From the NCBI GenBank assembly GCA_944329425.1, contig CALVIG010000003.1, positions 51,460 through 115,459 of the forward strand: a stretch of DNA of 64,000 bases, given 5' to 3'. A program made the translations under genes and the position numbers. Positions 42,661 through 61,474 of this stretch are shown here, piece by piece; the stretch's first letter is position 1, and each line of letters begins with the position of its first letter. Source of the DNA: an uncultured Bacilli bacterium. Lineage in GTDB: Bacteria > Bacillota_I > Bacilli_A > RF39 > UBA660. The notes under the pieces were generated by a model. That model was not told the origin of the DNA. It was given only the letters and a program-made list of their open reading frames with translations, and did no database searches.

Positions 42661-42661
42661 A

Positions 42662-43147: not shown

Positions 43148-43180
43148 TCTGTTATTTTTCATTTTAGTGAGGAAATAGGT

Positions 43181-43245: not shown

Positions 43246-43323
43246 ATTAATTTAAAAATGTCTAGTGAAATTCCAGTAGAAAAAATTTTATGATGAAGCT
43301 GTTAAAGAAAGGAGAATGATATT

Positions 43324-44855: not shown

Positions 44856-44875
44856 ATATAGAAAGGAGATTAGCA

Positions 44876-47800
44876 ATGAAAGAAATAGAGTTAATTGGAA
44901 AACGAAAAGCAAGAGAAAAACATTTCTTAAAAGAAAATGGAATAATAACAGCTAATGTCTATGATGAAGATATTCATTTTTTAAAAGATGGAAAATATGA
45001 AGAGATTGATAATACACTTATTGAGGAAAATGGCTATTTAGTAAATAAAAATAATGCGTATAAAGTTTCTTTTGCAAAGAAAAGTAAAGATGAACTAATG
45101 GAAATGAGTATAGGTAATAATTATATTAAAACAATGTTGGTTTATCAAAAAGAAGTGGATTTAAAAGAAAATATTACTCAGTCCAAACTTCACAAAAACG
45201 TATGTTATCCTAATATAATAGAAAATGTTGATTTAGAATATAATATTATGCCTGGAAAGGTAAAAGAAGCAATTATATTAAAAAATAAAAATGTTGATTT
45301 AGAAAAATTAGTTTTCATAATTGAAACAAACACAAAATTAGAATTAAAGGAAAATAAAAAAATTATTTCAACGGTAGACAATAATAATTGTTTCGAATTT
45401 GACGCACTTTATATGATAGATGCTAACTTTAAAACAAATAATAATATTAATTATAAATTAACTAAAAGAGATGATGATATATATCAACTTGAATTAATTG
45501 TTGACAAAGAATGGTTAAATAATGAAGAAACAAAATATCCAGTAATAATTGATCCAACAATAACAAATTCCGGTCAGAACAATAGTGTCTATGATACTTA
45601 TATTTATCCTGGTGATACTGGAGTTGATAGAAATAGTCAAGATATTTTAAAAGCAGGGGTTGAAAGAATTGATGGCGTTGATAGGGAAAATAGAACGTTA
45701 ATAAAATTTGATTTGCCTGTAATAGGTACCGGTAGTCAAGTAATAGGTGCCAATTTACAGTTATATGGTTATCCAAAAATACCTTCAGATAGTGAAACAG
45801 ATTTGTTGTTGGCTCATAGAATCACCACAAATTGGGATGAAAGTACTGCTACATGGGATAATATGAATGACAAATTTGATCCGTTGGTTGAAGGTTTAAT
45901 ATTTGTTGGAAGAGGATACTATGATTTTGAAAACGAAACTATTCATCCATTTAATTGTGGTGGTGATATTACTAGATTAGTGAGAAAATGGTACACAGGA
46001 ACGCCTAATTATGGTATTATGTTGAAACAAAATCTATTGAAGTATAATGCAAATATATTACCAGCATTTTATTCAAACAATAATAATTCTACTGGTATAA
46101 ATCCTAAGCCTGTATTATCTATATCATATAGAAATCAAAATGGAATAGAAAATTATATGAATTATCAGACAAAAGGTTTTTATGATGGCGAAGCATATGT
46201 CAATAACTATAATGGAAATTTGACCACAATATTTGATATTGGTTCAACAATAAGTGGAAAAATGCCAATTGGTTTAAATCTTATATATAATACAAATGAT
46301 GTTGTGTTAGAAAAAAATTATGGTTATGGATTAGGGTATAAATTAAATTTACACCAAACTATAAAAGAACAACTTATTGATTCTAAAACATATTTAGAGT
46401 ATTGTGATGAAGATGGTACTTTACATTATTTTTTAAATGAAAAAGCTATGTTTGATGAAAATGGTTATAATATCATTAATACACAAAACATTTATTATGA
46501 TGAAGATGGGTTGGATATGACTATAACAAAAAATAGTAATAGTTATGTGCTTAAAGATAAAAATGGAAATACTATGACATTTATTAAAAATGGTGATAAA
46601 GCATATTTAACTAAGATAGAAGATGTTAATGGTAATAAAAATACTATTGAATATAGTCCTGAGAATGCAATAGTAAAAATAATAGATGCTAATGATAATG
46701 AAATAAATTTAGAATATGGTGCAACTACAATAACTATAATAAGTCCAGAACAAACAGTTACTTTAAGTTATTTAAATAACCAAGTAGTCAGTATAAATAG
46801 TTTAACAGGAATAACTCAATTCGAATATAATGCAAATAATATTATATCTAAAATTATTGATATTGATGGTATGAAAACTACTTATGATTACTATGATCAA
46901 AAACCATACAAAGTAAAAAAAGTATCTGAATATGGTGCTGAAAATACTTTGGGAGAATATTTTGAGATGTTGTATGATTTTGATTCTACAACTATAGTAG
47001 ATTCAAAAGAAAACGCAAAAAATATTATATTTAATTCTCAAGGTAGTGTAGTATCAATTAGTGGTTTGAAGGATAAGGATGATATAAAAAATTCGTATGG
47101 GCTTAGCCAAATAAATGGCACATCTGGAATTACCATTAATAATGGAAACAATAATAAATTATTAAGAACAGAGATACCACTTAAATATGTTAAAAATTTA
47201 TTATCTAATACAAGTTTTGAAAAAAATGTAATTAATTTTACTAGTACAGAAGATGTTAATATGATTATAACTAATGAAACCTCGGAAACAGGTGCTAATA
47301 GTTTAAAAGCTACTAGTACAATTAATAATCAAGCATTAACACAAAGTATAGATGTAGAAAAAGGTGATTATTATACATTTAGTAGTTATATTAAAAATAC
47401 TGGTGATGTTAAATTAATTCTTAGTTACTTTGACAAGAATGGGATTATTATTCAATCTCAAAGTGAATTAATAAAGCCGAGTGATGTTTTTGAAAGATAT
47501 GATGTAACAATAAAGTATCCTGAAGATGCAACAAGTAATTTAACTTTAAAAATAATTTTAGAAGATGCTGGAACAGTATATGTTGATGATGTACAGTTGG
47601 AAACCGGTGAAGTTGCAAATAATTATAATTTATTAGAAAATTCAGATTTTTCTAATGGTTTCTCTGATTGGGAGGTTTCAGCTAGTGATAATTTAACAGG
47701 TGATTTATTATCTATAAATGATGTATTTGAAATTGTTTCTTTGCCAGACAATTTAAACGCACTTAAAATAAAAATGAATCCTGCTTATAATTATATTATG

Positions 47801-50800
47801 GAAAAAACATATAATATAAGTGGAAAAGGCGGAGATGTATTTAATCTTTCATTTTGGTATAAAAATGAAGGTGTAGATTCAGATTTATCAGAGTATTATG
47901 GAAGCAGACCATATATTATTTTTCATTATACAAATCAAGAAGATGGACATTGCATTATTCCTACACCGTTACTTAATATAAATGATCAATCATGGCAATA
48001 TGTTTCGAATGATTTTACTGCTGAAAAAGATTATAGTTCTATTACGATTAGTATTCAACATCAATATACTGCAAATGATTTTTATATTACAAATATGAGT
48101 TTATTTAAAGATATAAGAAATGTTTATTATGAGTATGATGAATTTGGAAATGTAATATTAGAAAAAAATTTAGATGATAATAGTAATAAATATAATTATG
48201 ATAAAGATAATAAATTGATTCAGATGACTAATCCAAAAGGCAAAAATTTTACTATTGAATATGATAATATTTTTAAAAATAGGACTATCAATGGTATGAC
48301 TGATATGGGGGTATCTAATCAATTAAAATATGACAATAATAATAATCCAATTATATCTAGGGTTCAAAAAAATAATATTATAGGTGATATAACAGATGGT
48401 TTATATAAAATAAGATTAAAGGGAAGCGATATATATTTAAGAAATATATCAAATGATATTAAATGTAAATTAGAAAACTGTAACCATGATATATGGAAAT
48501 TAGAAAAGATAGATGAATATGTTAAAATCCATCACTCTATTCTTACTGATAAATATTTTACTGTTCAGAATAATAATATTATTTTATCAAATGAAAATGG
48601 AGATAATTCACTATTTAAGTTGAAGAAAAATAAAAACGGAAGTTATTCTATAAAATTAAAACTAGAGGATAAATACTTAAAATATAATAATTCAGGAATA
48701 GAAATATCAACTTTGATAGATGAAGATTACAGTTTTGAATTTTATTTTGAAACTGTAGATTGTGATTTATTTATTGAAAATAAAGCGGAGTATACAGAAA
48801 ATGGTGCGTTTATAAGTCGAATAATTGATTCATTAAATCATTCTTATAATTATGAAATTGATCAGGAAAAAGGTTTGACTAAATCAGAAACAAACGAAAA
48901 AGGTATTAAAACTAATTATAATTATAATTCTAAAAAGAAACTTATTTCATCTATATGCAACGATAAAAGTGTATTTTATGAATATAATGATAAAAATTTG
49001 TTAAGTAAAGTTAAGCATGGTAAGAAAGAATATAATTTTATTTATGATGAATTTTCTAATGTTAAGACAATAAAAATGGGTAATAATATTAGGCTTATTA
49101 CATATAATTATGATACAAATGGAGATTTGATTTTATTAGATTATGGGAATGAAGGCTCTCTAAATTATGAGTATGACGAATTTTCTAGATTAAGTAAAAA
49201 AACTAAAGAAAATGATACCTATGAATATAAGTATAATGGAAGTGGAGATTTGGTAAAAATTTTATCAAATAATTACATAACTAAATATACTTATGATTTA
49301 GCTAAAAGATTGAGTAAATATAATTTTGATGATTTTATAATTAAATATAAATATGACTCAAATGAAAATATAACGAATATTAAGTATAGTTTGGGTAGCA
49401 TAAATAATGAAATAATAAATACTTTTAATGATGATGATTTGATAATTAATACGTCATTTTCAAATAAAAAAATAAATTATACCTATGATTTACTAGGTAG
49501 ATTAAAAAGTGAAAAAATAAACAATATATATGAAACAAGTTATGAATATATAGAGAATGGAAAAAATACTTCTACTCTATTGAAAAAGCTTAAAACAGGT
49601 AATAATATATATTCATACAAATATGATAAATTAAATAATTTAACGCATGTTTATTATAATGACGACTTATTAACTAAATATTATTATGATGACTATAATC
49701 AGCTTATAAAGGAAATCGATTTTGAAGATAAAAAAATTATAAAATATAAATATGATAATGTAGGTAATATGTTATACAAAAAAGTATATGCTTTGGATAC
49801 CTATGACTTTATTACCCAAGATATATATTATTACAATAATGATGATTGGCAAGATCAATTAACTTCGTTTAATAACACCGCTATTACTTATGATGAAATA
49901 GGGAATCCATTAACTATAGGTAATAATATTAATCTAAACTGGATTAATGGTAGAGAACTAGAAACTTATAATGATGGTACTAACCTAATTTCGTATAAAT
50001 ATAATTCTGAAGGTATAAGAATAAGTAAAAAGGTGAATAACACGGAAACGAAATATTATTTAGAGGATAATGATATAATATTTGAAAAGAGAGGAAATAA
50101 TGTGCTATACTATTTACGTAATGATATAGATGATTTGTTTGGATTTATGTATAATAACGATTTATATTATTATGTAAAAAATAATAAGAATGATATTGTA
50201 GGTATATTAGATAACAGTTATAATATAGTAGCTAAGTATAAATATGATTCTTGGGGAAAAGTAATTTCTATAACTGATAGTCAAGATAACGATATATCAA
50301 ATAATGTTAATAATATAGGAAATATAAATCCGTTTAGATATAGATCTTATTATTATGATTCAGAAACTAAATTATATTATTTAAATAGTAGATATTATAA
50401 TCCGGAATGGAAAAGATTTATTAATCCTGATTCTTATGCTGGACAAATTGGTGGAAATATATTACTTCACAATATATATATATATTCTTTAAATAATCCT
50501 ATTTTATATAGCGATGAAAGTGGTAATATAGTAGGATTAACATCAGTAGCTGCGGGTGTGTTATACGCTTTTGGAATTGCTGTATTTAAAGCTTCTGTGT
50601 ATGTAGCTGTTAGTGGTTTAGTTGTTGGGGGCTCTATTTATGTGGGAAAAGCCATATCCAATAATAAAAGTAAATCAAAATCAAAGACGAAAGCACAAAG
50701 TAAATCTAAAATAAAAACTGCTGTGGCTGCAAAAGCAAAAACTAGTACAAAAAAATATTCGAACAACAATAAGCCATGTACAGAAGCCTATTTTACAAAA

Positions 50801-51079
50801 GATATGAGAGATGTTGTACGTGGTGAAAGATTAACAATTGAAGAAACAATTGCAAAAGTTAATGCTAAGGGAAATGTTATGTGTGATAATTATTGGCCCG
50901 CTAAAGAAGTTGCTACTGCCATTTCTCCAAATCCAATATGTGAAATAAATAGCATTCAGCATAAAGGATATAAATATTACTATCACTTTCATCCAAATAG
51001 AGATACTTATAAGGATGTACATATATTCTTTGAAGGATTACCATTAGAATTTTTTGAAGGGAAGGGAAATTGTAGATGA
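44876..51079 (+). CDS. Rhs/YD-repeat polymorphic toxin (2067 aa): DNRLRE-like domain, CBM-like and ricin-B-like lectin modules, YD repeats, RHS core, variable C-terminal toxin domain
   Basis: RBS GAAAGGAGA. Dozens of YD-type repeats (e.g. YKYDSNENITNIKY, YTYDLLGRL). RHS core end motif FRYRSYYYDSETKLYYLNSRYYNPEWKRFINPD...NIYIYSLNNPILYSDESGN. N-terminal region with DNRLRE-like segment (DRENRTLIKFDL). No signal peptide. Confidence 0.85.
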   Translation: MKEIELIGKRKAREKHFLKENGIITANVYDEDIHFLKDGKYEEIDNTLIEENGYLVNKNNAYKVSFAKKSKDELMEMSIGNNYIKTMLVYQKEVDLKENITQSKLHKNVCYPNIIENVDLEYNIMPGKVKEAIILKNKNVDLEKLVFIIETNTKLELKENKKIISTVDNNNCFEFDALYMIDANFKTNNNINYKLTKRDDDIYQLELIVDKEWLNNEETKYPVIIDPTITNSGQNNSVYDTYIYPGDTGVDRNSQDILKAGVERIDGVDRENRTLIKFDLPVIGTGSQVIGANLQLYGYPKIPSDSETDLLLAHRITTNWDESTATWDNMNDKFDPLVEGLIFVGRGYYDFENETIHPFNCGGDITRLVRKWYTGTPNYGIMLKQNLLKYNANILPAFYSNNNNSTGINPKPVLSISYRNQNGIENYMNYQTKGFYDGEAYVNNYNGNLTTIFDIGSTISGKMPIGLNLIYNTNDVVLEKNYGYGLGYKLNLHQTIKEQLIDSKTYLEYCDEDGTLHYFLNEKAMFDENGYNIINTQNIYYDEDGLDMTITKNSNSYVLKDKNGNTMTFIKNGDKAYLTKIEDVNGNKNTIEYSPENAIVKIIDANDNEINLEYGATTITIISPEQTVTLSYLNNQVVSINSLTGITQFEYNANNIISKIIDIDGMKTTYDYYDQKPYKVKKVSEYGAENTLGEYFEMLYDFDSTTIVDSKENAKNIIFNSQGSVVSISGLKDKDDIKNSYGLSQINGTSGITINNGNNNKLLRTEIPLKYVKNLLSNTSFEKNVINFTSTEDVNMIITNETSETGANSLKATSTINNQALTQSIDVEKGDYYTFSSYIKNTGDVKLILSYFDKNGIIIQSQSELIKPSDVFERYDVTIKYPEDATSNLTLKIILEDAGTVYVDDVQLETGEVANNYNLLENSDFSNGFSDWEVSASDNLTGDLLSINDVFEIVSLPDNLNALKIKMNPAYNYIMEKTYNISGKGGDVFNLSFWYKNEGVDSDLSEYYGSRPYIIFHYTNQEDGHCIIPTPLLNINDQSWQYVSNDFTAEKDYSSITISIQHQYTANDFYITNMSLFKDIRNVYYEYDEFGNVILEKNLDDNSNKYNYDKDNKLIQMTNPKGKNFTIEYDNIFKNRTINGMTDMGVSNQLKYDNNNNPIISRVQKNNIIGDITDGLYKIRLKGSDIYLRNISNDIKCKLENCNHDIWKLEKIDEYVKIHHSILTDKYFTVQNNNIILSNENGDNSLFKLKKNKNGSYSIKLKLEDKYLKYNNSGIEISTLIDEDYSFEFYFETVDCDLFIENKAEYTENGAFISRIIDSLNHSYNYEIDQEKGLTKSETNEKGIKTNYNYNSKKKLISSICNDKSVFYEYNDKNLLSKVKHGKKEYNFIYDEFSNVKTIKMGNNIRLITYNYDTNGDLILLDYGNEGSLNYEYDEFSRLSKKTKENDTYEYKYNGSGDLVKILSNNYITKYTYDLAKRLSKYNFDDFIIKYKYDSNENITNIKYSLGSINNEIINTFNDDDLIINTSFSNKKINYTYDLLGRLKSEKINNIYETSYEYIENGKNTSTLLKKLKTGNNIYSYKYDKLNNLTHVYYNDDLLTKYYYDDYNQLIKEIDFEDKKIIKYKYDNVGNMLYKKVYALDTYDFITQDIYYYNNDDWQDQLTSFNNTAITYDEIGNPLTIGNNINLNWINGRELETYNDGTNLISYKYNSEGIRISKKVNNTETKYYLEDNDIIFEKRGNNVLYYLRNDIDDLFGFMYNNDLYYYVKNNKNDIVGILDNSYNIVAKYKYDSWGKVISITDSQDNDISNNVNNIGNINPFRYRSYYYDSETKLYYLNSRYYNPEWKRFINPDSYAGQIGGNILLHNIYIYSLNNPILYSDESGNIVGLTSVAAGVLYAFGIAVFKASVYVAVSGLVVGGSIYVGKAISNNKSKSKSKTKAQSKSKIKTAVAAKAKTSTKKYSNNNKPCTEAYFTKDMRDVVRGERLTIEETIAKVNAKGNVMCDNYWPAKEVATAISPNPICEINSIQHKGYKYYYHFHPNRDTYKDVHIFFEGLPLEFFEGKGNCR

Positions 51080-51804
51080 TAATAAGAGATAAAGTGACTG
51101 GTGATTTATATAAAAATTTAATGAATTATATTATTTCAAAAAGTGACGTTTTATCAGTATCAGTAAATCTTATTTATAATAAGAAAGTTACGGATAAATT
51201 TATGAAAATTATTACATATAATAATGAGTATGATATTAATAATATTCTAAATGATGTTCCTAAAAAACTAATAGAGGAAATTTCTGAGGAAAACAAGAAT
51301 AATACTTTAATTTTTGATGAAGAATATATAAATAATGAAAAAAGATATTTAATAAAATATATTCAAAATTTTTCAGAAGATGATAGGGTATCTCTCATAT
51401 ATAAAAGAAGAAAAACTTATATAAAAAATATGATTTATTGGCTAGTTTATGAATATAAAACAACTAATTGGTTACGTAAATTTAAAACTAGTATTATTTA
51501 TAAAAAGCGTAAAAATTCATCGTATACTACTTATTATCTCAATCTGACGAAGGATTTAATAGATGATATCCTTAGCAGAAATTCATTTGATGATTGGAAT
51601 TTTCCATTATCTGTTGAAGATATTGCATTTTTTAAGGATAAACAATGTTTATTATGTTCAGAAACTCATGAAAATATGTGGGATTTATATTGTAAAGATC
51701 AAAATGAATATAAGTATTTTAAATCTATTGGTATTAAATTTAATGATTTTAAATATAAATCAGAAGGAAAAAAAGGATTACCTTACAATAATTATTATAT
51801 TTAA
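51076..51804 (+). CDS. Putative cognate immunity protein of the Rhs C-terminal toxin
   Basis: Start overlaps the Rhs stop (ATGA). Cytoplasmic 242-aa protein with no homology recognised. The position is typical for Rhs immunity genes. Confidence 0.45.
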   Translation: MIIRDKVTGDLYKNLMNYIISKSDVLSVSVNLIYNKKVTDKFMKIITYNNEYDINNILNDVPKKLIEEISEENKNNTLIFDEEYINNEKRYLIKYIQNFSEDDRVSLIYKRRKTYIKNMIYWLVYEYKTTNWLRKFKTSIIYKKRKNSSYTTYYLNLTKDLIDDILSRNSFDDWNFPLSVEDIAFFKDKQCLLCSETHENMWDLYCKDQNEYKYFKSIGIKFNDFKYKSEGKKGLPYNNYYI

Positions 51805-51908
51805 TTAGATTTAGGTATTATTAATTTGAACTTTAACTCTAAAATTTGCAAAAGGCATTTTGATCGAGTTATCATTATGTCTTTTAATATTTTTCAAAAG
51901 GAAAAATT

Positions 51909-52208
51909 ATGATAAATTTTATAATAAATTATTGGATTGAGATATTATTGACGTCTATTACATCAGGAATTATATATATTTTTAAACAATATATGGGTTT
52001 AAAAAACGGAATGAAATCTCTTTTAAGAAATGAAATAATAAGAATATATGATAATCAAGAAAAATTAGGATATTGTCCTAGTTATATGAAAGAGAACATT
52101 AAAGAAATGTATGAAAACTACCATAAATTAGGTGGTAATGGAATGGTTACAAAAATGACTAATAAATTATATGAATTACCAAATGTAAAGGAGGATGATA
52201 AAGTATGA
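51909..52208 (+). CDS. BhlA/UviB-like holin-family protein (N-terminal transmembrane helix plus coiled region)
   Basis: 99 aa. Single N-terminal transmembrane segment. First gene of a three-gene overlapping cassette that ends in a lysin. Confidence 0.35.
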   Translation: MINFIINYWIEILLTSITSGIIYIFKQYMGLKNGMKSLLRNEIIRIYDNQEKLGYCPSYMKENIKEMYENYHKLGGNGMVTKMTNKLYELPNVKEDDKV

Positions 52209-52432
52209 AAGAAAAATTGATTTTATCTATTATTAATTTACTTAAAGTAAAATCAATAATAACGCTACTTACATTTGTAGCGTTCTTTTATTTATCTATT
52301 TCAGAAAAAATAGGTAGCGATAATTTTATGCTGATTATAGGAATGATTGCGACTTATTTCTTTAATAAAGATAATTCTGAAAAATTAAAAAATAAATCTA
52401 TGGAAGTGGTAAAAGATGAGCAAGATAACTAA
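52205..52432 (+). CDS. Small two-transmembrane holin-like protein
   Basis: 75 aa. Two hydrophobic helices and a charged C-terminus (KDEQDN). It overlaps both neighbours (ATGA-type coupling). Confidence 0.45.
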   Translation: MKEKLILSIINLLKVKSIITLLTFVAFFYLSISEKIGSDNFMLIIGMIATYFFNKDNSEKLKNKSMEVVKDEQDN

Positions 52433-53153
52433 CTTAATATTTAAAAATGCTAATCATTATGTAACATCTGGCTTTGGTAATAGAAAAGTAATGAATACCA
52501 AAGGAGGCTATACAAGTTCTTTTCATAATGGAACAGATTATGGGACAAATAATGTTAAATTACCACAATATGCTATTGAAAATGGAACTGTATTAAGTTG
52601 TGGTACGGATTCTTTAGGAGGAAAATTTGTTTGGGTTAAATATCCTAGAATAAATGTTAAAATGCTTCATTATCATTTATCTAGTGTTAATTGTAAAACT
52701 AATCAAATAGTATCTAAGGGAACACTTTTAGGATATACTGGTATGAGTGGTAAGGCAACAGGTATTCATTTGCATTTGTCTATTGTTGATCTATCTAATG
52801 GAGAGTTTTTGAATCCTGAGACGTATTCTTATACTGAACAAAGTGAAACATCTGTGCCTGTAATTAATAATTCATTTTTTGGTAATAAATCATATTTTAA
52901 GCGTGGTGATTCATGTGACAATATAGGTAAAGTATGTTATTTTTTTGCAGACTATTTTTATGGATATTTTTGTAAAACTAAAGAGGAGGCTCATAAGTTA
53001 TTAGATGGTAATCTATTTGGACCATATCTTGAGAAATGGGTAAAAGAGTTTCAAGAAAGAGCTAAAGCAGAGGGAAGGTATTATGATAACATTGATGGCT
53101 ACATTGGACCTAAAACTTTAAAAACTTTAGAAAGCTATGGGTTTATTTATTGA
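52416..53153 (+). CDS. M23-family peptidoglycan endopeptidase with C-terminal PG_binding_1 domain (endolysin-like)
   Basis: HNGTDYG ... GMSGKATGIHLHLSI (HxxxD/HxH zinc motifs of LytM/M23). C-terminal ...YYDNIDGYIGPKTLKTLESYGF is the peptidoglycan-binding repeat. No signal peptide. Confidence 0.75.
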   Translation: MSKITNLIFKNANHYVTSGFGNRKVMNTKGGYTSSFHNGTDYGTNNVKLPQYAIENGTVLSCGTDSLGGKFVWVKYPRINVKMLHYHLSSVNCKTNQIVSKGTLLGYTGMSGKATGIHLHLSIVDLSNGEFLNPETYSYTEQSETSVPVINNSFFGNKSYFKRGDSCDNIGKVCYFFADYFYGYFCKTKEEAHKLLDGNLFGPYLEKWVKEFQERAKAEGRYYDNIDGYIGPKTLKTLESYGFIY

Positions 53154-53284
53154 TTAATAAAGGGGTACAAATTATTATTTTGTATCCTTTTAAAATATTC
53201 ATATTTACTAAAATAATTAAATATGATAATATAAACTTATAAAATGTGTTGATTAGCAGTAAATAATATTTATTAGGAGAAATC

Positions 53285-54058
53285 ATGACAAAGAGATTAA
53301 AACTATTTATAATAATTACTGTATTATTAATTATAATAATATTTATTTTCAGATTATTTCCTTTTGGATATAATCAATATAAAATTAGCTTGGATTTAAG
53401 TAAAATTACTTTGCCTAAATTTTCATATGATATTAAACAGGAACAAAAAGGTATAATAACTTTTAAATCACATAGAAGTAAATTTATAATTCAAGATGAA
53501 ATAAATGATATGTTTGAATCTTATGATAAATATATTTGTAATAACAAAGTGTATTATTATGATAAAAATCATAATATAACATTTATGGATTATGAAATCT
53601 CAAATAGATTTTTTACTAATAATATTAAATTAATATATCATAGTGGTAAATTTAGTGATAATGAATGTGCAAAAGTATTTGATTATAAACAAATGGATTA
53701 CAGAATTATCCCGGTTAATAGCACAGGTCATTGTTATATTAAAGAAGATAAGTTTGAATATAGAGATGAAAATAATGAATTACATAATGTGTATTATGAA
53801 TGTTTTGGTAATTTAGCATTTAAAAATGGAATGAATAAAATGGAATATATTGATAGAGTTTTATTTTTTAGATGGATTTCTATGAAGGACATAATTAATT
53901 ATTTAAATTATAAAACAAAAGATAAAACTTTTATGAAAAAAATAATAGATAAAAAACATACGTTATATTATAATAATGATTTTTATTTGTTGAAGTGTAA
54001 TAATAAAAATATATATATAGGTGAAAAGTATGATGAATTTAAAAGTTATTGTAATTAA
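53285..54058 (+). CDS. Hypothetical protein with N-terminal transmembrane anchor
   Basis: ORF with RBS AGGAGA. Extremely AT-rich. No family recognised. Confidence 0.35.
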   Translation: MTKRLKLFIIITVLLIIIIFIFRLFPFGYNQYKISLDLSKITLPKFSYDIKQEQKGIITFKSHRSKFIIQDEINDMFESYDKYICNNKVYYYDKNHNITFMDYEISNRFFTNNIKLIYHSGKFSDNECAKVFDYKQMDYRIIPVNSTGHCYIKEDKFEYRDENNELHNVYYECFGNLAFKNGMNKMEYIDRVLFFRWISMKDIINYLNYKTKDKTFMKKIIDKKHTLYYNNDFYLLKCNNKNIYIGEKYDEFKSYCN

Positions 54059-54412
54059 AAATAAATTTGATATAAAATAATCAAATTTATTTTTCTATGC
54101 ACCTATAACAAATTTCAGAAATAGAAAAGTTATATCTTTTTGAAAGTAAGTAAAGTCTTTCTAATTAAATAATGACTTTACCATACTCTATTCCACTTAA
54201 CATACTTTTTTGAATATTTAGTATTATTGCTAATTTTTTTAACTTAGATTTTAAGTTTTTCTTATTCTTAAAATATTTTTAGGAATGATTTTTAAATTCA
54301 ACTCTGTAATATTATAAATTCTTTTAGAATCATTTTTAATAAATTAACAACAGAAGAGAGAAAAATTATATATTGGATTTATTTGGACAATAAATGAAAG
54401 AAGGAAAACAAA

Positions 54413-54613
54413 ATGAGAAAAGACTCTTTAAATAGTGTGGCATCAGCAGTAAAAGAGTTCAAAAAATATATAAAAGAGAATGAAAATAATATTGATAAAT
54501 CGAAAAAAATTATATTAAGGCAGGCTCTAAAAGCAGCGCGCTCTATTATAAGCTCTAATAGAACATATTTTAATAGCCAAGAGTTAAGAGAATTATTTAA
54601 TGATAATGATTAA
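54413..54613 (+). CDS. Hypothetical small protein
   Basis: 66-aa ORF with RBS GAAGGAAAA. Confidence 0.3.
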   Translation: MRKDSLNSVASAVKEFKKYIKENENNIDKSKKIILRQALKAARSIISSNRTYFNSQELRELFNDND

Positions 54614-54776
54614 AAGTAAAATTATATTTCATTTTTTAAAAACATTAAAATAGTAAAGTTTTAAATCATGTTTTTATTAGTTTTATATTATAAAAATCTC
54701 ATTTACTTTTCTGATGTAAAAGTATATAATAGCACTTAAAAAAAAGCAGTGCTTATTATAAAGTATAAGCGATTTT

Positions 54777-55011
54777 AGATATTTGAGTAGTACATCTATA
54801 AACTTTTACTAGTGCAGTAGTTTAGTAGCATTGCTATTAGGGTGTGCTACTATGTATGAAAAGATATTTAATAGTCAATATTTTATTTTTAATGCCGTAT
54901 GGGGCTTGTTCGTTCAAGTCCCGTGCGGCATTTTTTTTATACCTGTTTTTATTATGTTTAAAATTCGTTCACCGCCTTTTCTATTGAATAACTCAATAGA
55001 AAGGAAGGTAA
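54777..55011 (+). promoter_or_regulatory. Conserved leader upstream of sigma-like regulator copy B (paralogous to 42429-42660)
   Basis: Same conserved 5' block, internal hairpin plus T-run (54894-54938), CACCGCCTTTCT box and RBS-proximal hairpin CTTTCTATTGAATAACTCAATAGAAAG. Confidence 0.4.
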
Positions 55012-55491
55012 ATGAATAATCCAAAAAGACGCAAAAGTAAAGATAATCCATATACTTTAATTTATAATTCACAAGATGATAAATATATTATTTCTTTTAA
55101 TGATTCTAGTAACCATAAAATTATTTTTGAAATAGATCGTTCTTTATATATGTTATTTAATGAATTTGAATTAGAAGACTTATCAGAGTTAAATGAATTT
55201 GATAGACATATAGAGCATCTTAATATAATGGAGAGTGATGAGATTCTATATAAAAGAACCCTGAAAAAGAGTTTATTAGTAGATGACATTGTTGATAAAA
55301 AATTAGAAATGGAAACATTGAGAGAAGCTATAAATGAACTTCCAATGACGCAGAAAAGGAGATTAAAAAAGTACTATTTTGAAAATAAAACGCTGGAAGA
55401 TATAGCAAAAGATGAACATTGCTCAAAAGTGGCTGTTAAATATAGCATTGATTGTGCAATTAGTAATTTAAGAAAAAAATTAAAAAGTTAA
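55012..55491 (+). CDS. Sigma-70 region-4-like HTH regulator, copy B
   Basis: 159 aa. Paralogue of 42662-43147 (shared KSKDNPYTL, LNEFDRHIEHL, KYYF...K..S blocks). Confidence 0.55.
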   Translation: MNNPKRRKSKDNPYTLIYNSQDDKYIISFNDSSNHKIIFEIDRSLYMLFNEFELEDLSELNEFDRHIEHLNIMESDEILYKRTLKKSLLVDDIVDKKLEMETLREAINELPMTQKRRLKKYYFENKTLEDIAKDEHCSKVAVKYSIDCAISNLRKKLKS

Positions 55492-55530
55492 ATTTTTAGG
55501 CTTAACTTTTAGGCTAGAAGTGAGGAAATA

Positions 55531-55611
55531 GATGGAAGGGTAAAATATCCTTTCCATCTGTTTTTGATTTTAATAACAAAACACAGAAGTTGATCTTTGA
55601 CAACTTAATAT
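55531..55611 (+). promoter_or_regulatory. Conserved terminator hairpin plus TTGACA box downstream of sigma-like copy B
   Basis: GATGGAAGGGTAAAATATCCTTTCCATC hairpin, then GATCTTTGACAACTTAATATT (identical 21-mer to copy A). Confidence 0.4.
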
Positions 55612-55880
55612 TTATTCATCAGATACGTTCTTATTGTTCTGGAGCACGTTAACAAGTACGCTTGTCGGTAAATACTTGGTTATAAAACTAGATGGCAACT
55701 AGTATTGCGAAGATAAATAATAAGGTTAAAGATACTTCTGTTCAGCCATAGACTCAATCATTGGGAGCAGTCCGGAGTGATCCTCGGGAGAGTGAAAATC
55801 TCATGGAATTAGTTAGCCACTAATCGTCTGGTGAATGTTAAAAGTACTTGTTTATATTAAAATGGAAGGGAATTTATTAA

Positions 55881-56081
55881 ATGAAAAAGTATAAAGTAAA
55901 AATAAAATTAATATTTGAGACTACTATGTATCATTCACAGACGAGTTTGAAAAAGACTAAAGAAGACATTAATAGGGTTATAACACATTATTTAAAGGGT
56001 AAAAAACTTAATATTTTAAATTTATTTAATACTACACCGCGAATTATTTGTAAGGTGGAAAAAGATGATAGAAAACAATGA
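55881..56081 (+). CDS. Hypothetical small basic protein
   Basis: 66-aa ORF with RBS GGAAGGGAA. Upstream of the recombinase. Confidence 0.25.
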   Translation: MKKYKVKIKLIFETTMYHSQTSLKKTKEDINRVITHYLKGKKLNILNLFNTTPRIICKVEKDDRKQ

Positions 56082-56373
56082 TATTAATTAGTAAAAAAAT
56101 ATTATGATTAAAAAGTTTTGCATACATATAAATAGGAGGAAGATAATGTGAATGAAGTTGAATATAATGTTAATGTTTTTGTAAATAAAAATGGTTATAA
56201 TTCAAAAGATAAGAAAATAATTGAAAAAAAATTTAATCAAAAATTATTAAAGATAATTATTTCTATAGAAAAAAATAAAGTTTGTCAAGTTTAAAAAAAT
56301 AAAAAAAGTATAATTTATATTTTTAAAAATTTATTTTAGTATTAATTTGCAAGAAAGGAGGGTGCTTTCTATA

Positions 56374-57984
56374 ATGAAGAATAGAGTTGATATATATACA
56401 AGACTTTCCGATGAAGACAGATATAAAAAAAATAAAAGTGATGATAGTGAATCTATAGCTAACCAGAAAAGCATGTTATTAAAATATGCGTTAGAGCAGG
56501 GCTGGGAAGTAATAAATGTTTATAGTGATGATGATTATTCCGGTGCTGATAGTAATAGACCACAATTTCAAAAACTTTTAAAGGATTGTGAAAATGGCGT
56601 TGTTGATATAGTGCTTTGCAAAACCCAGAGTAGGTTTTCTCGTGATATGGAAGTCGTTGAAAGGTATATACATAATAAATTTATTGAATGGGGAGTACGC
56701 TTCGTTAGTATTGTTGATAATGCAGATACTGCAAATAAAGGCAATAAAAAATCTAGGCAAATTAATGGCCTTGTAAACGAATGGTATTTAGAAGATTTAT
56801 CAGATAATATTAGAAATTCATTGCAAAACAGAAGAGAAGATGGTTTATTTTTAGGATCTTTCGCTCCATATGGTTACATTAAGGATCCGGATAACAAAAA
56901 CAAGTTATTAATTGATCCCATTGCTGCTGAAATAGTAAGAGAAATATTTAACTTGTATAAATCCGGAGTTGGTTATTATAATATTGCCACAACTTTAAAT
57001 AAAAGAGGCGTTTTAACACCTTCTAATTATAAAAAAGAAAATGGTAGTAAATATGTATGCGGGAAAGCACGATTTAAAGAGAAAACAAAATGGTCTCAAG
57101 ATACGATTGCTAAAATATTAAGAAATGAAGTTTATATAGGTAATTTAGTGCAAGGAGTAAAAACTTATGTAAGTTATAAAAATCATAAATCTTATATTAA
57201 GCCTAAAAATGAATGGACTTATTCTTATGGTACACACGAACCTATAATAGATATGGAAACGTGGAATATGGTTCAATCTAAATTTAGATCTAGGACAAGA
57301 GTTAGTAGAACAACAGGTGAAGTATATTTGTTAAGTAAGAAGATTTATTGTAAAGAATGTGGTGGTGTATTTAATAGACAAATTTATCACACAAAAGACG
57401 GAAAAGTTCCATATATGAAATGTAAGGGAGTAAAGCTAGCTAATCGTGATTGTTCTAATAGGGAATCAATAAGATGTGAAAAAGTTGAAAAAATAATATT
57501 AGATGAATTGAATAAACAATTAGACTTATATTATAATGTTGATGAATTAGAAAGGTTATATGTTTTGCAAAAAAAATCTTTGAATAGTAGTACTTTATTA
57601 AAGAAAGAAACTTTAAATAATGAAAAACAAATATTACAGGAAAAAGTCGATAAAAAAAATGAACATTATAAAGCTTTATATGAAGATAAATTGGAGGGAA
57701 TAATTACGCAAGAAGACTTTATAATGTTTAGAGAAAAATTTTTAAATGAAATTGAAGAATATAAAAATAGAATCAAAATTATTGACGAGGAATTGAAATC
57801 GTTAAAATCGGAAGAAGAAAATGTTGAATCGAGCAGAGAAGTTTTTGAAAAATATAGACATATTAATAAACTTACAAAAGAAATTGTTGATGAATTTGTT
57901 GATGTTGTTAAAATAGGTAAAATAAATAAAGAAGATAATAGTAGAGATATAGATATTCATTTGAATATCATTAATTTAGATTAA
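56374..57984 (+). CDS. Large serine recombinase (resolvase/invertase N-terminal catalytic domain, recombinase domain, zinc ribbon, coiled-coil)
   Basis: N-terminal VDIYTRLSDEDR...IANQKSML (catalytic Ser region), YSGADSNRPQFQKLL, a C-terminal Cys cluster (CKECGG...CKG...C) and a long coiled-coil. The ATG at 56374 with RBS AGGAGGG is the preferred start. The stop lies 20 bp from the att core. Confidence 0.85.
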   Translation: MKNRVDIYTRLSDEDRYKKNKSDDSESIANQKSMLLKYALEQGWEVINVYSDDDYSGADSNRPQFQKLLKDCENGVVDIVLCKTQSRFSRDMEVVERYIHNKFIEWGVRFVSIVDNADTANKGNKKSRQINGLVNEWYLEDLSDNIRNSLQNRREDGLFLGSFAPYGYIKDPDNKNKLLIDPIAAEIVREIFNLYKSGVGYYNIATTLNKRGVLTPSNYKKENGSKYVCGKARFKEKTKWSQDTIAKILRNEVYIGNLVQGVKTYVSYKNHKSYIKPKNEWTYSYGTHEPIIDMETWNMVQSKFRSRTRVSRTTGEVYLLSKKIYCKECGGVFNRQIYHTKDGKVPYMKCKGVKLANRDCSNRESIRCEKVEKIILDELNKQLDLYYNVDELERLYVLQKKSLNSSTLLKKETLNNEKQILQEKVDKKNEHYKALYEDKLEGIITQEDFIMFREKFLNEIEEYKNRIKIIDEELKSLKSEEENVESSREVFEKYRHINKLTKEIVDEFVDVVKIGKINKEDNSRDIDIHLNIINLD

Positions 57985-58004
57985 TTACCTTGCTAACACG
58001 TATC

Positions 58005-58270
58005 CTGGACATGGAGGATCTGATCCAGGCGCATCAAATGGTGATATTATTGAAAAAGATTATACTTTAAAAATATCTAATTACATGTATGATAGGTTTA
58101 AAGATTTGGGTATACCGGTGGTTATAACTAGAACAACGGATAAAACTCTTAATCCAACAGACAGGGTAAATGTTATTAAACCCAACATAACTAGTAAAGA
58201 TGATATAGTTATTTCTAATCACTTAAATGCCGGAGGTGGCGAAGGTCAAAGTGTAACAATAAATGTATAA
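58005..58270 (+). pseudogene. 3' fragment of the cwlC-type Amidase_3 gene (start-less), resuming at ...PGHGGSDPGASNGD
   Basis: The frame is open from the element junction with no start codon. It contains GHGGSDPGA, VITRTTD, and HLNAGGG (the H.NAGGG zinc-ligand region), then stops prematurely shortly after. Confidence 0.6.
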
Positions 58271-58309
58271 CAATTAAAGCCTAAATATAGAAAGAAATGA
58301 GGAAATGTT

Positions 58310-58660
58310 ATGAATATTAGTTACACTAGAAAAGGTGATTATTTATTACCTAATTTGATATTAGAAAATAAAGAACAATATAATATAAGAAAATATGGAT
58401 TATTAAGATTAGATTATATTAAAAATAATAAGAAAAGTTTATACATTAAATTACTTATGAATGATGAATTAAATAAATATTTACATGATATAGATGAATT
58501 AGTAGAAGATAAAGTAAATGAATTAATAAAGATACTTGCTGAAAAAGAAAATATAAATGAAGAAATGAAATGTAATCAACAATTACTATGGATAAAAAAT
58601 ATGAATAATATAAAAAATAGAGCTGAAGAAATTATATTAAAGGAGTATATCTATGTGTGA
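58310..58660 (+). CDS. TnpV-like transposon-encoded protein (Tn4451 TnpV family)
   Basis: N-terminus MNISYTRKGDYLLPNLIL and C-terminal LWIKNMNNIKNRAEEII resemble TnpV proteins, which pair with large serine recombinases. Confidence 0.45.
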   Translation: MNISYTRKGDYLLPNLILENKEQYNIRKYGLLRLDYIKNNKKSLYIKLLMNDELNKYLHDIDELVEDKVNELIKILAEKENINEEMKCNQQLLWIKNMNNIKNRAEEIILKEYIYV

Positions 58661-58952
58661 TATAACAGAAAAAGAATGGAATCAAAAATATTTACCTTTT
58701 TATCATAATTTCAGTAAGTATATGATTAATTACATTATTCCTGATGTAGTAGCTTTTTATATAGCTAATAGTTATAGTAGAAAATGTTTATGTGATTCAT
58801 CGCTTTATAATCATATTAATTCTGCAAAAGATGTATTTAATGTAAGCTGCGATACAAAAAAATTAATACCTAAAATCGAAGAAATATTAAGAATAAAATA
58901 TAATCTAAAAATAGTAAATAATAATCCATTAAGATTAAAAAGATGTTATTAA
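58653..58952 (+). CDS. Hypothetical protein
   Basis: ORF overlapping the tnpV-like stop. No family recognised. Confidence 0.3.
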   Translation: MCDITEKEWNQKYLPFYHNFSKYMINYIIPDVVAFYIANSYSRKCLCDSSLYNHINSAKDVFNVSCDTKKLIPKIEEILRIKYNLKIVNNNPLRLKRCY

Positions 58953-59368
58953 AGAAATTAACGCTATCTGAAATATGATAGTGTTTTTTGTTTATGTGAG
59001 TATATTTATTGTCTAGCCAGCACTGAATTTCTACTCCCGTACGAAATTCTTTTGTGGGAAATGTCCCAAGCCCTATTTTTAAAATTAAAAATTTGTAAGT
59101 ATTTCAATGCCAAAATTAAAATTTTGTCAAATTATATGGTATAATAATATCATATTGGTTTTGATACTACGAAAAACAATAGGATCAACTAGGATATTAA
59201 TTAATTTGTAATTTTTATAGTTTGTTAAGCTTTATTTATTAATAGTGTGGTATTAAAAAAAATTAAAATTATACTTATTGCTAAAAAAGATTATTTAAAT
59301 TCTTTTTTGTTGAAATAGCTTATTTTAATAAATAATAAATTGAAAAATAGTTATTAGGAAGTGATATA

Positions 59369-61474
59369 ATGGCTAATAAAAATACTAACTTGCAAAACGC
59401 AAAAAAAGCAAAAGATGATGAATTTTATACGAGATATGAAGATATTTATAACGAAGTAATTCAATATAAAAAACATTTTAATAATAAAATAGTTTTGTGT
59501 AATTGTGATGACCCGTTTGAATCAAATTTCTGCAAATTTTTTTTGAAAAATTTTAACGTATTGAAGTTAAAAAGATTGATTTGTACAACTTATTATTGTT
59601 CAAAAATTGTTTCTAAAGAATTTGAATTTTTAAAAAAGGAAAAGAAGAAAAACAAAAAGTATGGATATGTTTTAGACGTCACCAAGTTTTCAAATATTAA
59701 TGGAGAAATTCCTGATGAAATAATTTATGATTTCCTTAAAAAAGCAGATTGTATAAAAAGATTAAATGGTGATGGAGATTTTCAAAGTGATGAGTGTATT
59801 GAGTATGTAAAATTATCAGATATAATTGTAACAAATCCACCTTTTTCCTTGTTTAGAGAATTTGTATCTATTATTACAAAATATCAAAAAAAATTTTTAA
59901 TAGTAGGTAATCAAAATGCATTGACTTATAAAGAAATTTTCCCACTAATAAAAAATGATAAGATATGGACTGGTTTTCAATTTGGTGAGATGAAATTTAG
60001 AGTTCCAAAAACATCAAAACCAAGAACAACTAGATATTGGGTTGATGAGTCTGGTCAAAAGTGGAGAAGTCTTGGTAATGCCATGTGGTTAACAAATATT
60101 GATAACGAAAGAAGACATAGACAAATAAATTTAACGAAAAAATATGATCCCAATGAATATCCTAAATATGATAATTATGATGCTATTAATGTAAAAACTA
60201 TAAATGATATACCTTATGATTTTTATGGAATAATGGGGGTACCTATAACGATTATAAATAGATATAATAGTGAACAATTTGAGATAGTTGGTGAGGCTAA
60301 TCATGGCTCTGATAACGAATATGATTTATTTAAACCAATATTAAATGGTAGGGAACTATATAAAAAAATTTTGATTAGAAGAAGAATCAAAGATGTAAAA
60401 ATAAAAGAGTTTTTGATTTTAGATTTATTTAGTGGGGCAGGTGGATTTTCGTACGGAATGGAAAAAAATCCTCATTTTAAAACAGTAGTAGCTCTAGATT
60501 TTAATAAATATGCATTAGATACTTTTAAAAGTAATATGCCAGATTCAGAAATCATATGTGGTGATATTACTAATGACGAAATAAAAGAGCAGGTTATTAA
60601 AATAAGTAGAGAAAAAAAAGTAAATATGATTATTGGTGGGCCCCCATGTCAGGGGTTCTCGTTGAAAGGAAAGAAATTAGGTTTGGATGATCCTAGAAAT
60701 TATTTATTTAGTGAGTATTTAAAAATAGTTGAAGCATTAAAACCGGAAGTTTTTATTATTGAAAATGTCAAGGCTTTATTGTCAACATCGGCTGGATGGT
60801 TTAAGAATCAAATAATTGAAAAAGTCTCTAAAATGGGATATTTTATTGAATGTGGAATATTGACAGCATCAGATTTTGGCGTTCCACAATCCAGGCAAAG
60901 AGCAATATTTATATGTTCAAAAAATAAAAAAATATCGCTTCCTAGTGCAACTGTTAAAAATAAAGTGACAGTTAAAGATGCAATTTATGATTTGGCGTTC
61001 CTTAATTCTGGAGAAGGAGATTTCGAACAAAATTATCAATTATCAGTGACTAGTAAATATCAAAAAGATATGAGAAAAGGTTGTAAAAAATTATATAATC
61101 ATCAAGCTTCTAATCATGCAAAGATTGCAATACAAAAATTAGAAATGATTCCACCAGAAGGTGGGAAAGAATTTTTACCAAAAGAAATGTTAGGAAAACA
61201 AAAATATAGTGGAACATGGGGGAGATTAAAATGGGATGATGTTTCTCCAACTATTGATACTAGATTTGATGCAGCATCAAATGGAACAAATAATCATCCG
61301 TTTTTAAATAGGGCAATAACTCCTAGGGAAGCAGCAAGATTACAATCTTTTGATGATAAATTTATTTTTTTAGGATCAAAAGTGCATGTTAGAGAACAAA
61401 TAGGGAATGCTGTTCCCCCTCTATTGGCAAAGGCAATAGCAGATAAAATATATATGGAATTAGGTGATGAATAA
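59369..61474 (+). CDS. Fused DNA methyltransferase: N-terminal EcoRI-methylase-type N6-adenine MTase domain plus C-terminal C5-cytosine MTase domain
   Basis: N-terminus NAKKAKDDEFYTRYEDI...IVLCNCDDPFESNF...IIVTNPPF (EcoRI methylase family blocks plus the NPPF motif). C-terminal half has FSGAGGF (motif I), GGPPCQGFS (PCQ, motif IV), ENV (VI) and QIGNAVPPLLA (X). Confidence 0.85.
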   Translation: MANKNTNLQNAKKAKDDEFYTRYEDIYNEVIQYKKHFNNKIVLCNCDDPFESNFCKFFLKNFNVLKLKRLICTTYYCSKIVSKEFEFLKKEKKKNKKYGYVLDVTKFSNINGEIPDEIIYDFLKKADCIKRLNGDGDFQSDECIEYVKLSDIIVTNPPFSLFREFVSIITKYQKKFLIVGNQNALTYKEIFPLIKNDKIWTGFQFGEMKFRVPKTSKPRTTRYWVDESGQKWRSLGNAMWLTNIDNERRHRQINLTKKYDPNEYPKYDNYDAINVKTINDIPYDFYGIMGVPITIINRYNSEQFEIVGEANHGSDNEYDLFKPILNGRELYKKILIRRRIKDVKIKEFLILDLFSGAGGFSYGMEKNPHFKTVVALDFNKYALDTFKSNMPDSEIICGDITNDEIKEQVIKISREKKVNMIIGGPPCQGFSLKGKKLGLDDPRNYLFSEYLKIVEALKPEVFIIENVKALLSTSAGWFKNQIIEKVSKMGYFIECGILTASDFGVPQSRQRAIFICSKNKKISLPSATVKNKVTVKDAIYDLAFLNSGEGDFEQNYQLSVTSKYQKDMRKGCKKLYNHQASNHAKIAIQKLEMIPPEGGKEFLPKEMLGKQKYSGTWGRLKWDDVSPTIDTRFDAASNGTNNHPFLNRAITPREAARLQSFDDKFIFLGSKVHVREQIGNAVPPLLAKAIADKIYMELGDE

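Follow-up and report, generated by a model that had tools for sequence, protein, structure and literature searches.

What releases a very large toxin without a signal peptide from the cell that makes it, and why would a phage-type lysis cassette stand directly behind such a toxin? How large signal-less toxins leave the cell has been established by experiment for no more than a few Gram-negative Tc toxins, and for the toxins of Clostridioides difficile the debate continues. The question is raised here by a 64,000-nucleotide stretch of chromosomal DNA from an uncultured Bacilli bacterium (contig CALVIG010000003.1), referred to below as the window, which is low in GC (about 20-37% G+C) and carries long gene runs on the + strand. 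At window positions 51909-53153 (+), three overlapping genes follow an Rhs toxin gene and its presumed immunity gene, and the original prediction, made from the sequence, took them for an SPbeta-like lysis cassette dedicated to the export or release of the toxin. We find that the cassette closes an eight-gene module of about 10.5 kb that runs from a regulator through the lysin, its extent being defined by standalone copies in other genomes. With a probability of roughly 0.6, we read this module as a domesticated operon from a siphophage late region that acts as a lysis-released Rhs bacteriocin, in which the cassette would be the fixed last part and would consist of a single-pass accessory protein followed by a small holin with two helices and an M23 endolysin that depends on the holin.

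A phage-type lysis cassette

The three genes lie exactly where they had been placed. The first (51909-52208, +) encodes a probable single-pass membrane protein of 99 residues, a candidate holin-associated lysis accessory protein of the phrog_4105 family; the second (52205-52432, +) a two-helix membrane protein of 75 residues with a charged C-terminal tail, the presumed class II-type holin (phrog_13256 family); and the third (52416-53153, +) a signal-less M23 metallo-endopeptidase endolysin of 245 residues with a presumed wall-binding domain at its C-terminus. The first two genes overlap by 4 nt (ATGA), and the second and third by 17 nt.

The M23 protein matches Peptidase_M23 (PF01551) with an E value of 8.7e-14 and 51.9 bits against a cutoff of 28.7. 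Its catalytic motifs HxxxD (HNGTD) and HxH (HLH) are intact and align to those of the solved M23 enzyme 6jmx, and lysostaphin and zoocin A are among its matches in the Protein Data Bank (PDB). The N-terminus, read directly, is hydrophilic, in agreement with the predicted lack of a signal sequence. The C-terminal 95 residues match endolysin PHROGs 1512, 102 and 1493, and gave nothing significant in a PDB sequence search. The PG_binding_1 (PF01471) repeat claimed for this protein was reduced to one copy, a single sub-threshold match at residues 201-237 (E = 0.03, 14.9 bits, cutoff 23).

For the 75-residue protein, hydropathy, the family alignment and an AlphaFold2 model (predicted local distance difference test score, pLDDT, of 72; helices at residues 2-12, 15-32 and 38-73) agree on an amphipathic N-terminus, two hydrophobic helices and a charged tail, bearing out the predicted two-transmembrane topology. 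Such a pair of membrane helices with a short loop, followed by a charged tail at the C-terminus, is the layout of a class II-type holin. The protein matches phrog_13256 (E = 4e-11), a family listed as function unknown.

The 99-residue protein has a moderately hydrophobic N-terminal segment (Kyte-Doolittle 17-residue maximum of 1.66) with a conserved Glu11, and its AlphaFold2 model (pLDDT 90) consists of one long helix (residues 2-53) and two short ones. On hydropathy and model together, the single membrane helix foreseen for it is probable, not proven. It matches phrog_4105 (E = 1e-16), also listed as function unknown, and a Foldseek search of the model against the BFVD viral structures returned uncharacterised phage proteins and several proteins named holin. 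Pfam gave no match for this protein at E ≤ 0.01 or at E ≤ 10, the BhlA/UviB (PF10960) and XhlA (PF10779) families included, and NCBIfam gave none; likewise, the 75-residue protein matched no Pfam or NCBIfam holin family even at E ≤ 10. The description of the cassette as BhlA-like thus fails as a statement of homology. What the 99-residue protein has in common with BhlA and XhlA is its position, as a small single-pass protein directly upstream of holin and lysin, which is a likeness and not family membership. The family is large (1,878 clusters at E ≤ 1e-3) and pairs with at least four or five unrelated holin-type partners; for this reason we read the 99-residue protein as a holin-associated accessory protein, analogous to XhlA and BhlA in layout, and the 75-residue protein as the holin.

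Homologues in phages and prophages support the assignment of the three genes to lysis. Clostridium phage CS266P3 has the order phrog_4105 protein, phrog_443 holin, lysozyme; in Faecalibacterium phage FP_Lugh and Dulem virus 39, the homologue of the 99-residue protein is followed by a phrog_263 and a phrog_1129 holin, respectively; and in Clostridium phage CS19 a homologue of the 75-residue protein directly precedes the endolysin. In all phage and module loci examined, the homologue of the 99-residue protein stands directly upstream of a holin-type gene. The homologues in CS266P3, FP_Lugh and CS19 are more distant than those in prophages of five metagenome-assembled genomes (MAGs) of the same host lineage (L032-L036), which carry both small genes at 67-71% (99-residue) and 73-77% (75-residue) identity. 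There the pair closes a tape-measure/Dit/Tal tail module, with Gp10_C tail-fibre genes on one side and an endolysin on the other; tape-measure, Dit and Tal homologues were confined to these five among the loci compared. The endolysin is a GH25 enzyme in the two that were scanned (L032 and L033), and a serine integrase lies downstream of the cassette in L033. In the sister modules described below, the slot of the 75-residue protein is filled by a phrog_443 holin or by a protein with a marginal Phage_holin_4_1 match. Because the prophage homologues form lysis cassettes and this slot holds recognised holins in sister loci, we take the three genes to be a genuine phage-type lysis module, as originally predicted. 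Judged by the same homologies, the cassette derives from a specific siphophage lineage of the same hosts, and the proposed kinship with SPbeta comes down to a similarity of layout. A megablast search with 42500-58000 gave no match in phage and plasmid collections, and hence no close annotated relative.

Conserved linkage with Rhs toxin genes

To place the cassette in its genomic context, homologues of the 99-residue protein with at least 56% identity were traced to their contigs, yielding 27 loci in a species-representative genome collection. All come from uncultured gut MAGs, mostly titled Bacilli, with Candidatus Aphodocola as the closest named relative. Upstream of the homologue, an intact or likely intact Rhs gene was found in 14/27 loci, remnants of Rhs, toxin or immunity genes in 6/27 and real prophages in 5/27; 2/27 offered too little sequence to judge. 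Three of the 14 Rhs loci are cut by a contig or locus edge, and the 11 seen in full have the Gp10_C gene in every case and the regulator in 10. The block, from which capsid, terminase and tail genes are absent, therefore recurs in at least 14 species-level genomes.

The same block was found on metagenome contigs L011, L013, L015-19, L024-27, L066-71 and L074, in several unrelated chromosomal contexts. It is followed by two serine recombinases and then yabG and veg in L011 and by uvrB in L013, and it adjoins a conjugative coupling protein in L015-19. In L024-27 it lies between 98%-identical direct duplicates of the 5' part of a P-type cation ATPase gene (1-589 and 11879-12455 in L024), which points to a discrete insertion that restored its target gene. 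It stands alone between CmpB and ClpP-PRK-GAPDH in L066-71 and between psd and SecDF in L074, and these standalone copies have no recombinase. With its order kept in dozens of independent contigs, the cassette is conserved far beyond chance, and its tie to the Rhs toxin-immunity pair, maintained across many species-level genomes and contexts, is not accidental. A search with the N-terminal 240 residues of the Rhs protein recovered gene fragments only, and the reciprocal view, from Rhs to lysis genes, rests on L074 and L072.

Across modules, the Rhs body is kept and the toxin tips and immunity genes are polymorphic. Lysins are also exchanged, with M23+LysM, M23+CW_7+LysM and GH25 architectures in sister modules, and one variant of the holin-slot protein occurs on more than 250 contigs. 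Among the Rhs-linked copies, ratios of nonsynonymous to synonymous substitution rates (dN/dS) are 0.05-0.24 for the 99-residue protein, 0.2-0.66 for the 75-residue protein and 0.08-0.19 for the M23 protein; all three lysis genes are under purifying selection.

These data bear on whether the locus is simply the end of a decaying prophage, in which fibre gene, Rhs 'moron' and cassette would be leftovers of a deletion of head and tail genes, without a role for the cassette in toxin function and on the way to being lost. Decay would fit the clear origin of the cassette and the Gp10_C gene in siphophage prophages of the lineage, the presence close by in the window of a serine recombinase, transposon genes and an amidase fragment, and the existence of truncated or remnant copies (L020-23, L031, L039, L049 and L072). 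However, decay does not account for a precise layout, in which the regulator gene adjoins that of the fibre and virion genes are missing, that is repeated in at least 14 species-level genomes and several unrelated chromosomal contexts, nor for purifying selection on the lysis genes with the M23 catalytic motifs intact; the swapping of holins and lysins moreover implies ongoing functional turnover. Low dN/dS, polymorphic tips and exchanged holins and lysins together argue for a working, selected module, and we consider decay improbable.

Some of the sister loci have features of their own. L020-L023 carry a truncated 83-residue copy of the 99-residue protein gene (10001-10252) beside orphan toxin/immunity fragments (Ntox44), and in L072 the Rhs locus is split into fragments and accompanied by repeated immunity-like cassettes. 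The titles of several module-bearing MAGs (L030/L054, L037, L043 and L047) read 'Muribaculaceae', 'Mycoplasma' or 'Tenericutes'; the Gram-positive-type lysins, and the sporulation genes of related contigs, suggest that these labels, or the binning, are wrong.

Toxin, immunity and fibre-like partner

The gene order of the operon is regulator, Gp10_C protein, an optional small open reading frame (ORF), Rhs toxin, immunity protein, hairpin, 99-residue protein, holin, endolysin and terminator. The tie between cassette and toxin-immunity pair had been recognised correctly in the original prediction, and the unit had been drawn too small, leaving out the sigma-region-4 regulator and the Gp10_C gene.

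The toxin gene (44876-51079, +) encodes an Rhs/YD-repeat polymorphic toxin of 2067 residues without a signal peptide, with RHS_repeat, Rhs_assc_core, DNRLRE and NTTRR-F1 domains. Its N-terminal part carries DNRLRE and carbohydrate-binding-like domains; the Rhs core comes next, and a hydrophobic segment and a linker rich in Lys and Ser lead from there to a variable toxin at the C-terminus. The immunity gene (51076-51804, +; 242 residues), presumed from its position, overlaps the Rhs gene by 4 nt and is replaced by genes for unrelated proteins in sister loci, as expected for immunity to a polymorphic toxin. YD repeats, an Rhs-associated core, a polymorphic tip and an adjacent variable immunity gene identify the pair as a polymorphic toxin system. 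Across loci, the Rhs N-termini are conserved, hydrophilic and free of signal peptides, so that the cargo needs a release route; a folded Rhs cocoon would be unable to use Sec.

The region around residues 1850-2067 of the Rhs protein (50420-51079) contains a glycine-rich hydrophobic stretch long enough for two membrane helices. The toxin domain after the Lys/Ser-rich linker, of about 130 residues, has no family match and carries the motifs KPCTEA, VMCD and YYxHxHP. The same toxin type is found in L050 and L052, and unrelated tips occur elsewhere, including Ntox44 in L074.

The Gp10_C gene (43324-44466, +) encodes a tail-fibre-like protein of 380 residues with a collar-type, receptor-binding Gp10_C tip (PF21939, E = 1e-24; tail-fibre PHROGs). 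Its full length is kept in Rhs-linked loci, whereas against the fibres of real prophages only the C-terminal tip matches. The small ORF between fibre and toxin genes (44448-44855, +; 135 residues as listed, 118 residues from 44499 according to gene callers) has no family match in Pfam, NCBIfam or PHROG scans. It is present in L011, L028, L066 and L074 and absent from L015 and L024, and it may encode a fibre chaperone.

The predicted lack of capsid, terminase and tail-tube genes held: none of these, and no portal gene, was found among the window ORFs scanned, so the element does not have the gene content of a functional prophage.

Regulatory leaders and internal hairpin

The module is headed by a gene (42662-43147, +) for a regulator of 161 residues with a helix-turn-helix of the sigma-region-4 type (Sigma70_r4_2, E = 5e-7; phrog_11138), which lies directly upstream of the Gp10_C gene in related loci. 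In a profile search against solved sigma factors, region 4 alone matches; the N-terminal 95 residues are unlike known sigma factors, and a phmmer search of the PDB with the regulator gave no match. We do not label it a TcdR-type sigma factor, region 4 being the only part detected.

The leader of this gene (42300-42661, +) contains a conserved box (42434-42470) and hairpins, and folds with a z score of -3.8. A terminator scan detected a terminator-like hairpin with a T-run (42569-42588, +), and single-sequence folds, together with a reading of the alignment, indicated a second hairpin at about 42620-42654 (+) that buries the ribosome-binding site. In each leader, an anti-Shine-Dalgarno element, CCNCCTTT, pairs with the ribosome-binding site. 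The arrangement of terminator and anti-Shine-Dalgarno/Shine-Dalgarno hairpin is kept across 13 loci with differing sequences. RNAalifold on the regulator leaders recovered the terminator hairpin and missed the ribosome-binding-site hairpin owing to alignment gaps. An Rfam search of 41900-56400 found no known RNA in the leader or in the gap between regulator and Gp10_C gene; its sole match was a pemK RNA motif after a second regulator.

This second regulator belongs to a further regulatory head joined to a recombinase (54660-57984, +), made up of a leader, a 159-residue regulator (55012-55491), the pemK RNA motif, two small ORFs and a large serine recombinase (56347/56374-57984; Recombinase domains). 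The duplicated leader (54660-55010) matches no Rfam family. The two leader and regulator copies (42300-43147 and 54660-55491) share 70-89% DNA identity in blocks, and the regulators 53% protein identity. The pemK RNA motif of the window (55726-55806, +; RF02913, 57 bits) precedes the small ORFs and the recombinase. It was also found at L015:2308-2385, L044:1898-1953, L045:916-971, L051:1700-1766 and L047:12557-12637; RF02913 scores over all these sites, the window included, range from 38 to 60 bits (gathering score 34.8). Four sister loci have the motif between the regulator and the Gp10_C/Rhs operon, which suggests that regulator and pemK RNA form one control unit. In the window, the second head and recombinase probably provide mobility to the element on which the module is carried. 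Since regulator homologues also precede serine recombinases in viral contigs (8 IMG/VR contigs), the head of the module resembles a control unit of mobile elements, apparently duplicated so as to drive the toxin operon. Further downstream in L024-27 (L024:14376-20321) lies a cluster with a third paralogue of the regulator at its head and, at its end, a diversity-generating retroelement (bAvd and a reverse transcriptase).

The position of these regulators in viral contigs could also be taken to indicate a satellite or helper-dependent element, whose fibre and lysis genes would serve a helper phage and whose Rhs protein would be attached to the virion or related to superinfection. The regulator could respond to such a helper, and the Rhs protein has a weak match to a phage head spike fibre domain. 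Against this stand the lack of packaging, replication or capsid-remodelling genes, the standalone copies without any recombinase, and the real prophages of the lineage, which have no Rhs gene; we give the idea very little credence.

Between immunity gene and cassette lies a terminator-like hairpin with a U-rich tail (51850-51896, +; ΔG -14.5 kcal/mol, z = -3.3), which ends 23 nt before the start codon of the 99-residue protein. A hairpin and U-run ending 16-30 nt before this start codon recur in 18-19 of 23 Rhs-linked loci, although the hairpin sequences are mutually unrelated. The prophage versions have no comparable hairpin, the gene for the 99-residue protein abutting the fibre gene there. 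A second terminator-like hairpin (53158-53200, +; ΔG -15.8 kcal/mol, z = -4.5) closes the operon. There is little promoter space past the internal hairpin, and therefore the lysis genes probably depend on read-through, which would throttle and delay lysis; colicin operons similarly have a terminator before the lysis gene.

Proposed release by lysis and its alternatives

A presumed holin and a wall hydrolase are encoded with a signal-less cargo outside a functional phage, the gene arrangement of type 10 secretion. Starting from the gene content, the homology to phage cassettes, the linkage with Rhs, the lack of virion genes, the purifying selection and the recurrent hairpin, all of which are directly established, we infer a course of induction, co-transcription, lysis, release and targeting. 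A signal would relieve the terminator and the hairpin burying the ribosome-binding site in the regulator leader, and the regulator would then turn the operon on. The Rhs toxin of about 240 kDa, the immunity protein and the fibre-like protein would build up in the cytoplasm, and limited read-through of the internal hairpin would supply the lysis proteins later and at a lower dose. The holin would open the membrane and the M23 enzyme cut the wall, so that the producer, probably a sacrificed subpopulation, would burst and free the toxin. Finally, targeting to competitors without the matching immunity would rely on the tip of the fibre-like protein and on the Rhs protein's carbohydrate-binding domains.

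The cassette had originally been compared with holin/endolysin pairs used for non-lytic protein export, and its genes can be read in that way: the holin-like pair would form a controlled channel, the M23 enzyme would open the wall locally, and the producer would survive. Non-lytic export through holins has precedent in the literature (PMC9527704, PMC3369941, PMC11344133) and has been proposed for TcdE with TcdA/B and for ChiWXYZ, and the extra 99-residue protein and the upstream hairpin could damp lysis. However, the endolysin here is complete and its catalytic motifs are intact, in contrast to the remnant TcdL (PMC6200909), and for this reason we do not favour non-lytic export over lysis. Real prophages use the same genes, at about 70% identity, for the purpose of lysis, and YenTc, the best-studied case of an Rhs-type cargo, is released by lysis (PMC10847048). 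We therefore regard survival of the producer as unlikely, if somewhat less so than prophage decay. The main thrust of the original prediction, a release function dedicated to a signal-less toxin, is retained in the form of an Rhs-dedicated lysis cassette.

The lysin might instead act on the target, where the M23 enzyme, and perhaps the small proteins, would thin the Gram-positive wall so that the Rhs cocoon could reach the membrane. A toxin of 240 kDa must somehow cross the peptidoglycan of its target, the secreted bacteriolysins lysostaphin and zoocin A found among the PDB matches are M23 enzymes, and the lysin has a separate, presumably wall-binding C-terminal domain. Yet an M23 enzyme without a signal peptide would still need holin or lysis to leave the cell, in sister modules its place is taken by GH25 muramidases or by further architectures typical of endolysins, and outside the producer no role is evident for the two membrane proteins. 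Such help in attack seems improbable as the purpose of the cassette, and could be an added function instead of a true alternative to release by lysis.

Several observations weigh against a lysis-released bacteriocin. Neither small protein fits a curated holin family in Pfam or NCBIfam, and a BFVD fold search with the model of the 75-residue protein was uninformative. The internal hairpin could equally stop Rhs transcription and leave the cassette poorly or separately expressed, and the hairpin region of the window contains a possible weak sigma-A-like promoter (TTGATC-17-TTTAAT). L037, L042 and L043 carry the gene for the 99-residue protein without Rhs, and the Rhs locus of L072 has no regulator or lysis genes in view, with 4.4 kb of sequence downstream before the contig ends. 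Given the clear descent of the module from a prophage, some copies may be mere remnants. In addition, all sources are MAGs or metagenome contigs of uncultured organisms.

Comparison with known release systems

In Yersinia, type 10 secretion system (T10SS) lysis cassettes are embedded in the Tc toxin operons and transcriptionally coupled to them, and lysis of a subpopulation frees the toxin (PMC10847048, PMC9718411). By analogy, these cassettes (YenTc; Y. enterocolitica Tc-PAI) appear to be the closest functional parallel to the module. In both, holin and endolysin genes of phage origin are part of the operon for a signal-less toxin of very large size that is folded in the cytoplasm, and TcC, like the toxin described here, has an Rhs/YD cocoon. 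YenTc differs in being Gram-negative, in having spanins, and in delivering an insecticidal tripartite ABC toxin, with neither an immunity gene nor a tail-fibre-like partner. Its holin and endolysin families are unrelated to those of the window.

Clostridial loci of the pathogenicity locus (PaLoc) type (TcdR, TcdA/B, TcdE, TcdL; TpeL, TcsL) are Gram-positive like the module, and they too encode giant toxins without signal peptides alongside a small dedicated regulator and a holin of phage origin (PMC6200909, PMC3369941, PMC8878733). The PaLoc retains a holin and an endolysin remnant (PMC6200909). In contrast to the module, its toxins are host-directed glucosyltransferases without an immunity gene, and its endolysin is reduced to a fragment. 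TcdE is a Phage_holin_4_1 protein, whereas the 75-residue protein has no match to this family and sister modules have a marginal one; the PaLoc regulator is a sigma factor, which the regulator of the window resembles in sigma region 4 only.

Colicin operons encode a toxin with a polymorphic killing domain, its cognate immunity protein and a lysis gene throttled by a terminator, and release is suicidal. The order of toxin, immunity and lysis genes is the same in the module, with a terminator-like hairpin before the lysis genes. Colicins differ in that the lysis protein is a small phospholipase-activating lipoprotein, and that the operons are plasmid-borne, under SOS control and Gram-negative. 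The arrangement of a single-pass protein, a small two-helix holin and a signal-less wall hydrolase recalls xhlA-xhlB-xlyA of PBSX and bhlA-bhlB-blyA of SPbeta in layout only; the XhlA and BhlA/UviB Pfam families are not matched, and the lysin is an amidase in those prophages and an M23 endopeptidase here. Clostridium perfringens pIP404 (uviAB-bcn) combines a signal-less bacteriocin with a sigma-type regulator and a protein of the BhlA family. Tailocins (R- and F-type, diffocin, monocin) are likewise domesticated late operons that have lost the head genes, have kept receptor-binding fibre and lysis cassette, and are released by lysis of the producer to kill its relatives. Unlike tailocins, however, the module has no tube, sheath, baseplate or tape-measure genes, and its killer is an Rhs-encapsulated enzyme toxin with an immunity protein in place of a tail that punctures membranes.

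What sets the module apart from all of these systems is that, in Bacillota, it joins an antibacterial polymorphic Rhs toxin and its immunity protein to a partner resembling a phage fibre and to a complete cassette of holin and endolysin; a description of such a module was not found in the full-text literature searched, the coverage of which is incomplete. The module offers a compact and repeatedly conserved Gram-positive example in which regulator, targeting, toxin, immunity and release are held in a unit of roughly 10.5 kb. It would show a route by which a prophage late operon is cut down to a toxin-delivery device other than a tailocin, and it points to a common weapon in abundant uncultured gut Bacilli.

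More tentatively, and with somewhat less than even odds, the product could belong to a so far undescribed class of tail-less phage-derived Gram-positive bacteriocins, an 'Rhs-ocin', in which a fibre-aimed Rhs cocoon has its own regulator of the mobile-element type and RNA leader and is released by programmed lysis through the domesticated cassette. The N-terminal half of the fibre protein might then have been re-fitted to the toxin, a conjecture to which we give the same limited credence. If true, signal-less Rhs toxins in Bacillota would here have their first dedicated route of export, one that is widespread among the uncultured Bacilli of the gut. The fibre protein, swappable toxin tips and lysins may serve as parts for engineered antimicrobials.

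Neighbouring genes in the window

Upstream of the module, the window contains an IS3-family transposase pair (35285-36642, -) and an Abi_2 abortive-infection gene (36850-37779). A 304-residue collagen-repeat/beta-helix protein (39810-40724) was rejected as a phage gene, its matches to tail-fibre PHROGs being due to the collagen repeat only. An exact-protein look-up for a NUDIX gene, also upstream of the module, returned no identical protein on record.

After the lysin, 53285-54058 encodes a protein of 257 residues with a strongly hydrophobic N-terminal anchor and no family match. It was found only in contigs essentially identical to the window, L013 having an unrelated gene for 241 residues at this position, and it may be element-specific cargo. 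Past the serine recombinase of the second regulatory unit lie a 61-residue Amidase_3 fragment (58085-58270), possibly a remnant of another endolysin, a TnpV gene (58310-58660) and a gene (59369-61474) for a 701-residue fusion of an EcoRI-type N6-adenine methyltransferase with a C5-cytosine methyltransferase. The stretch 58085-61474 looks like a Tn4451-like or restriction-modification cargo region.

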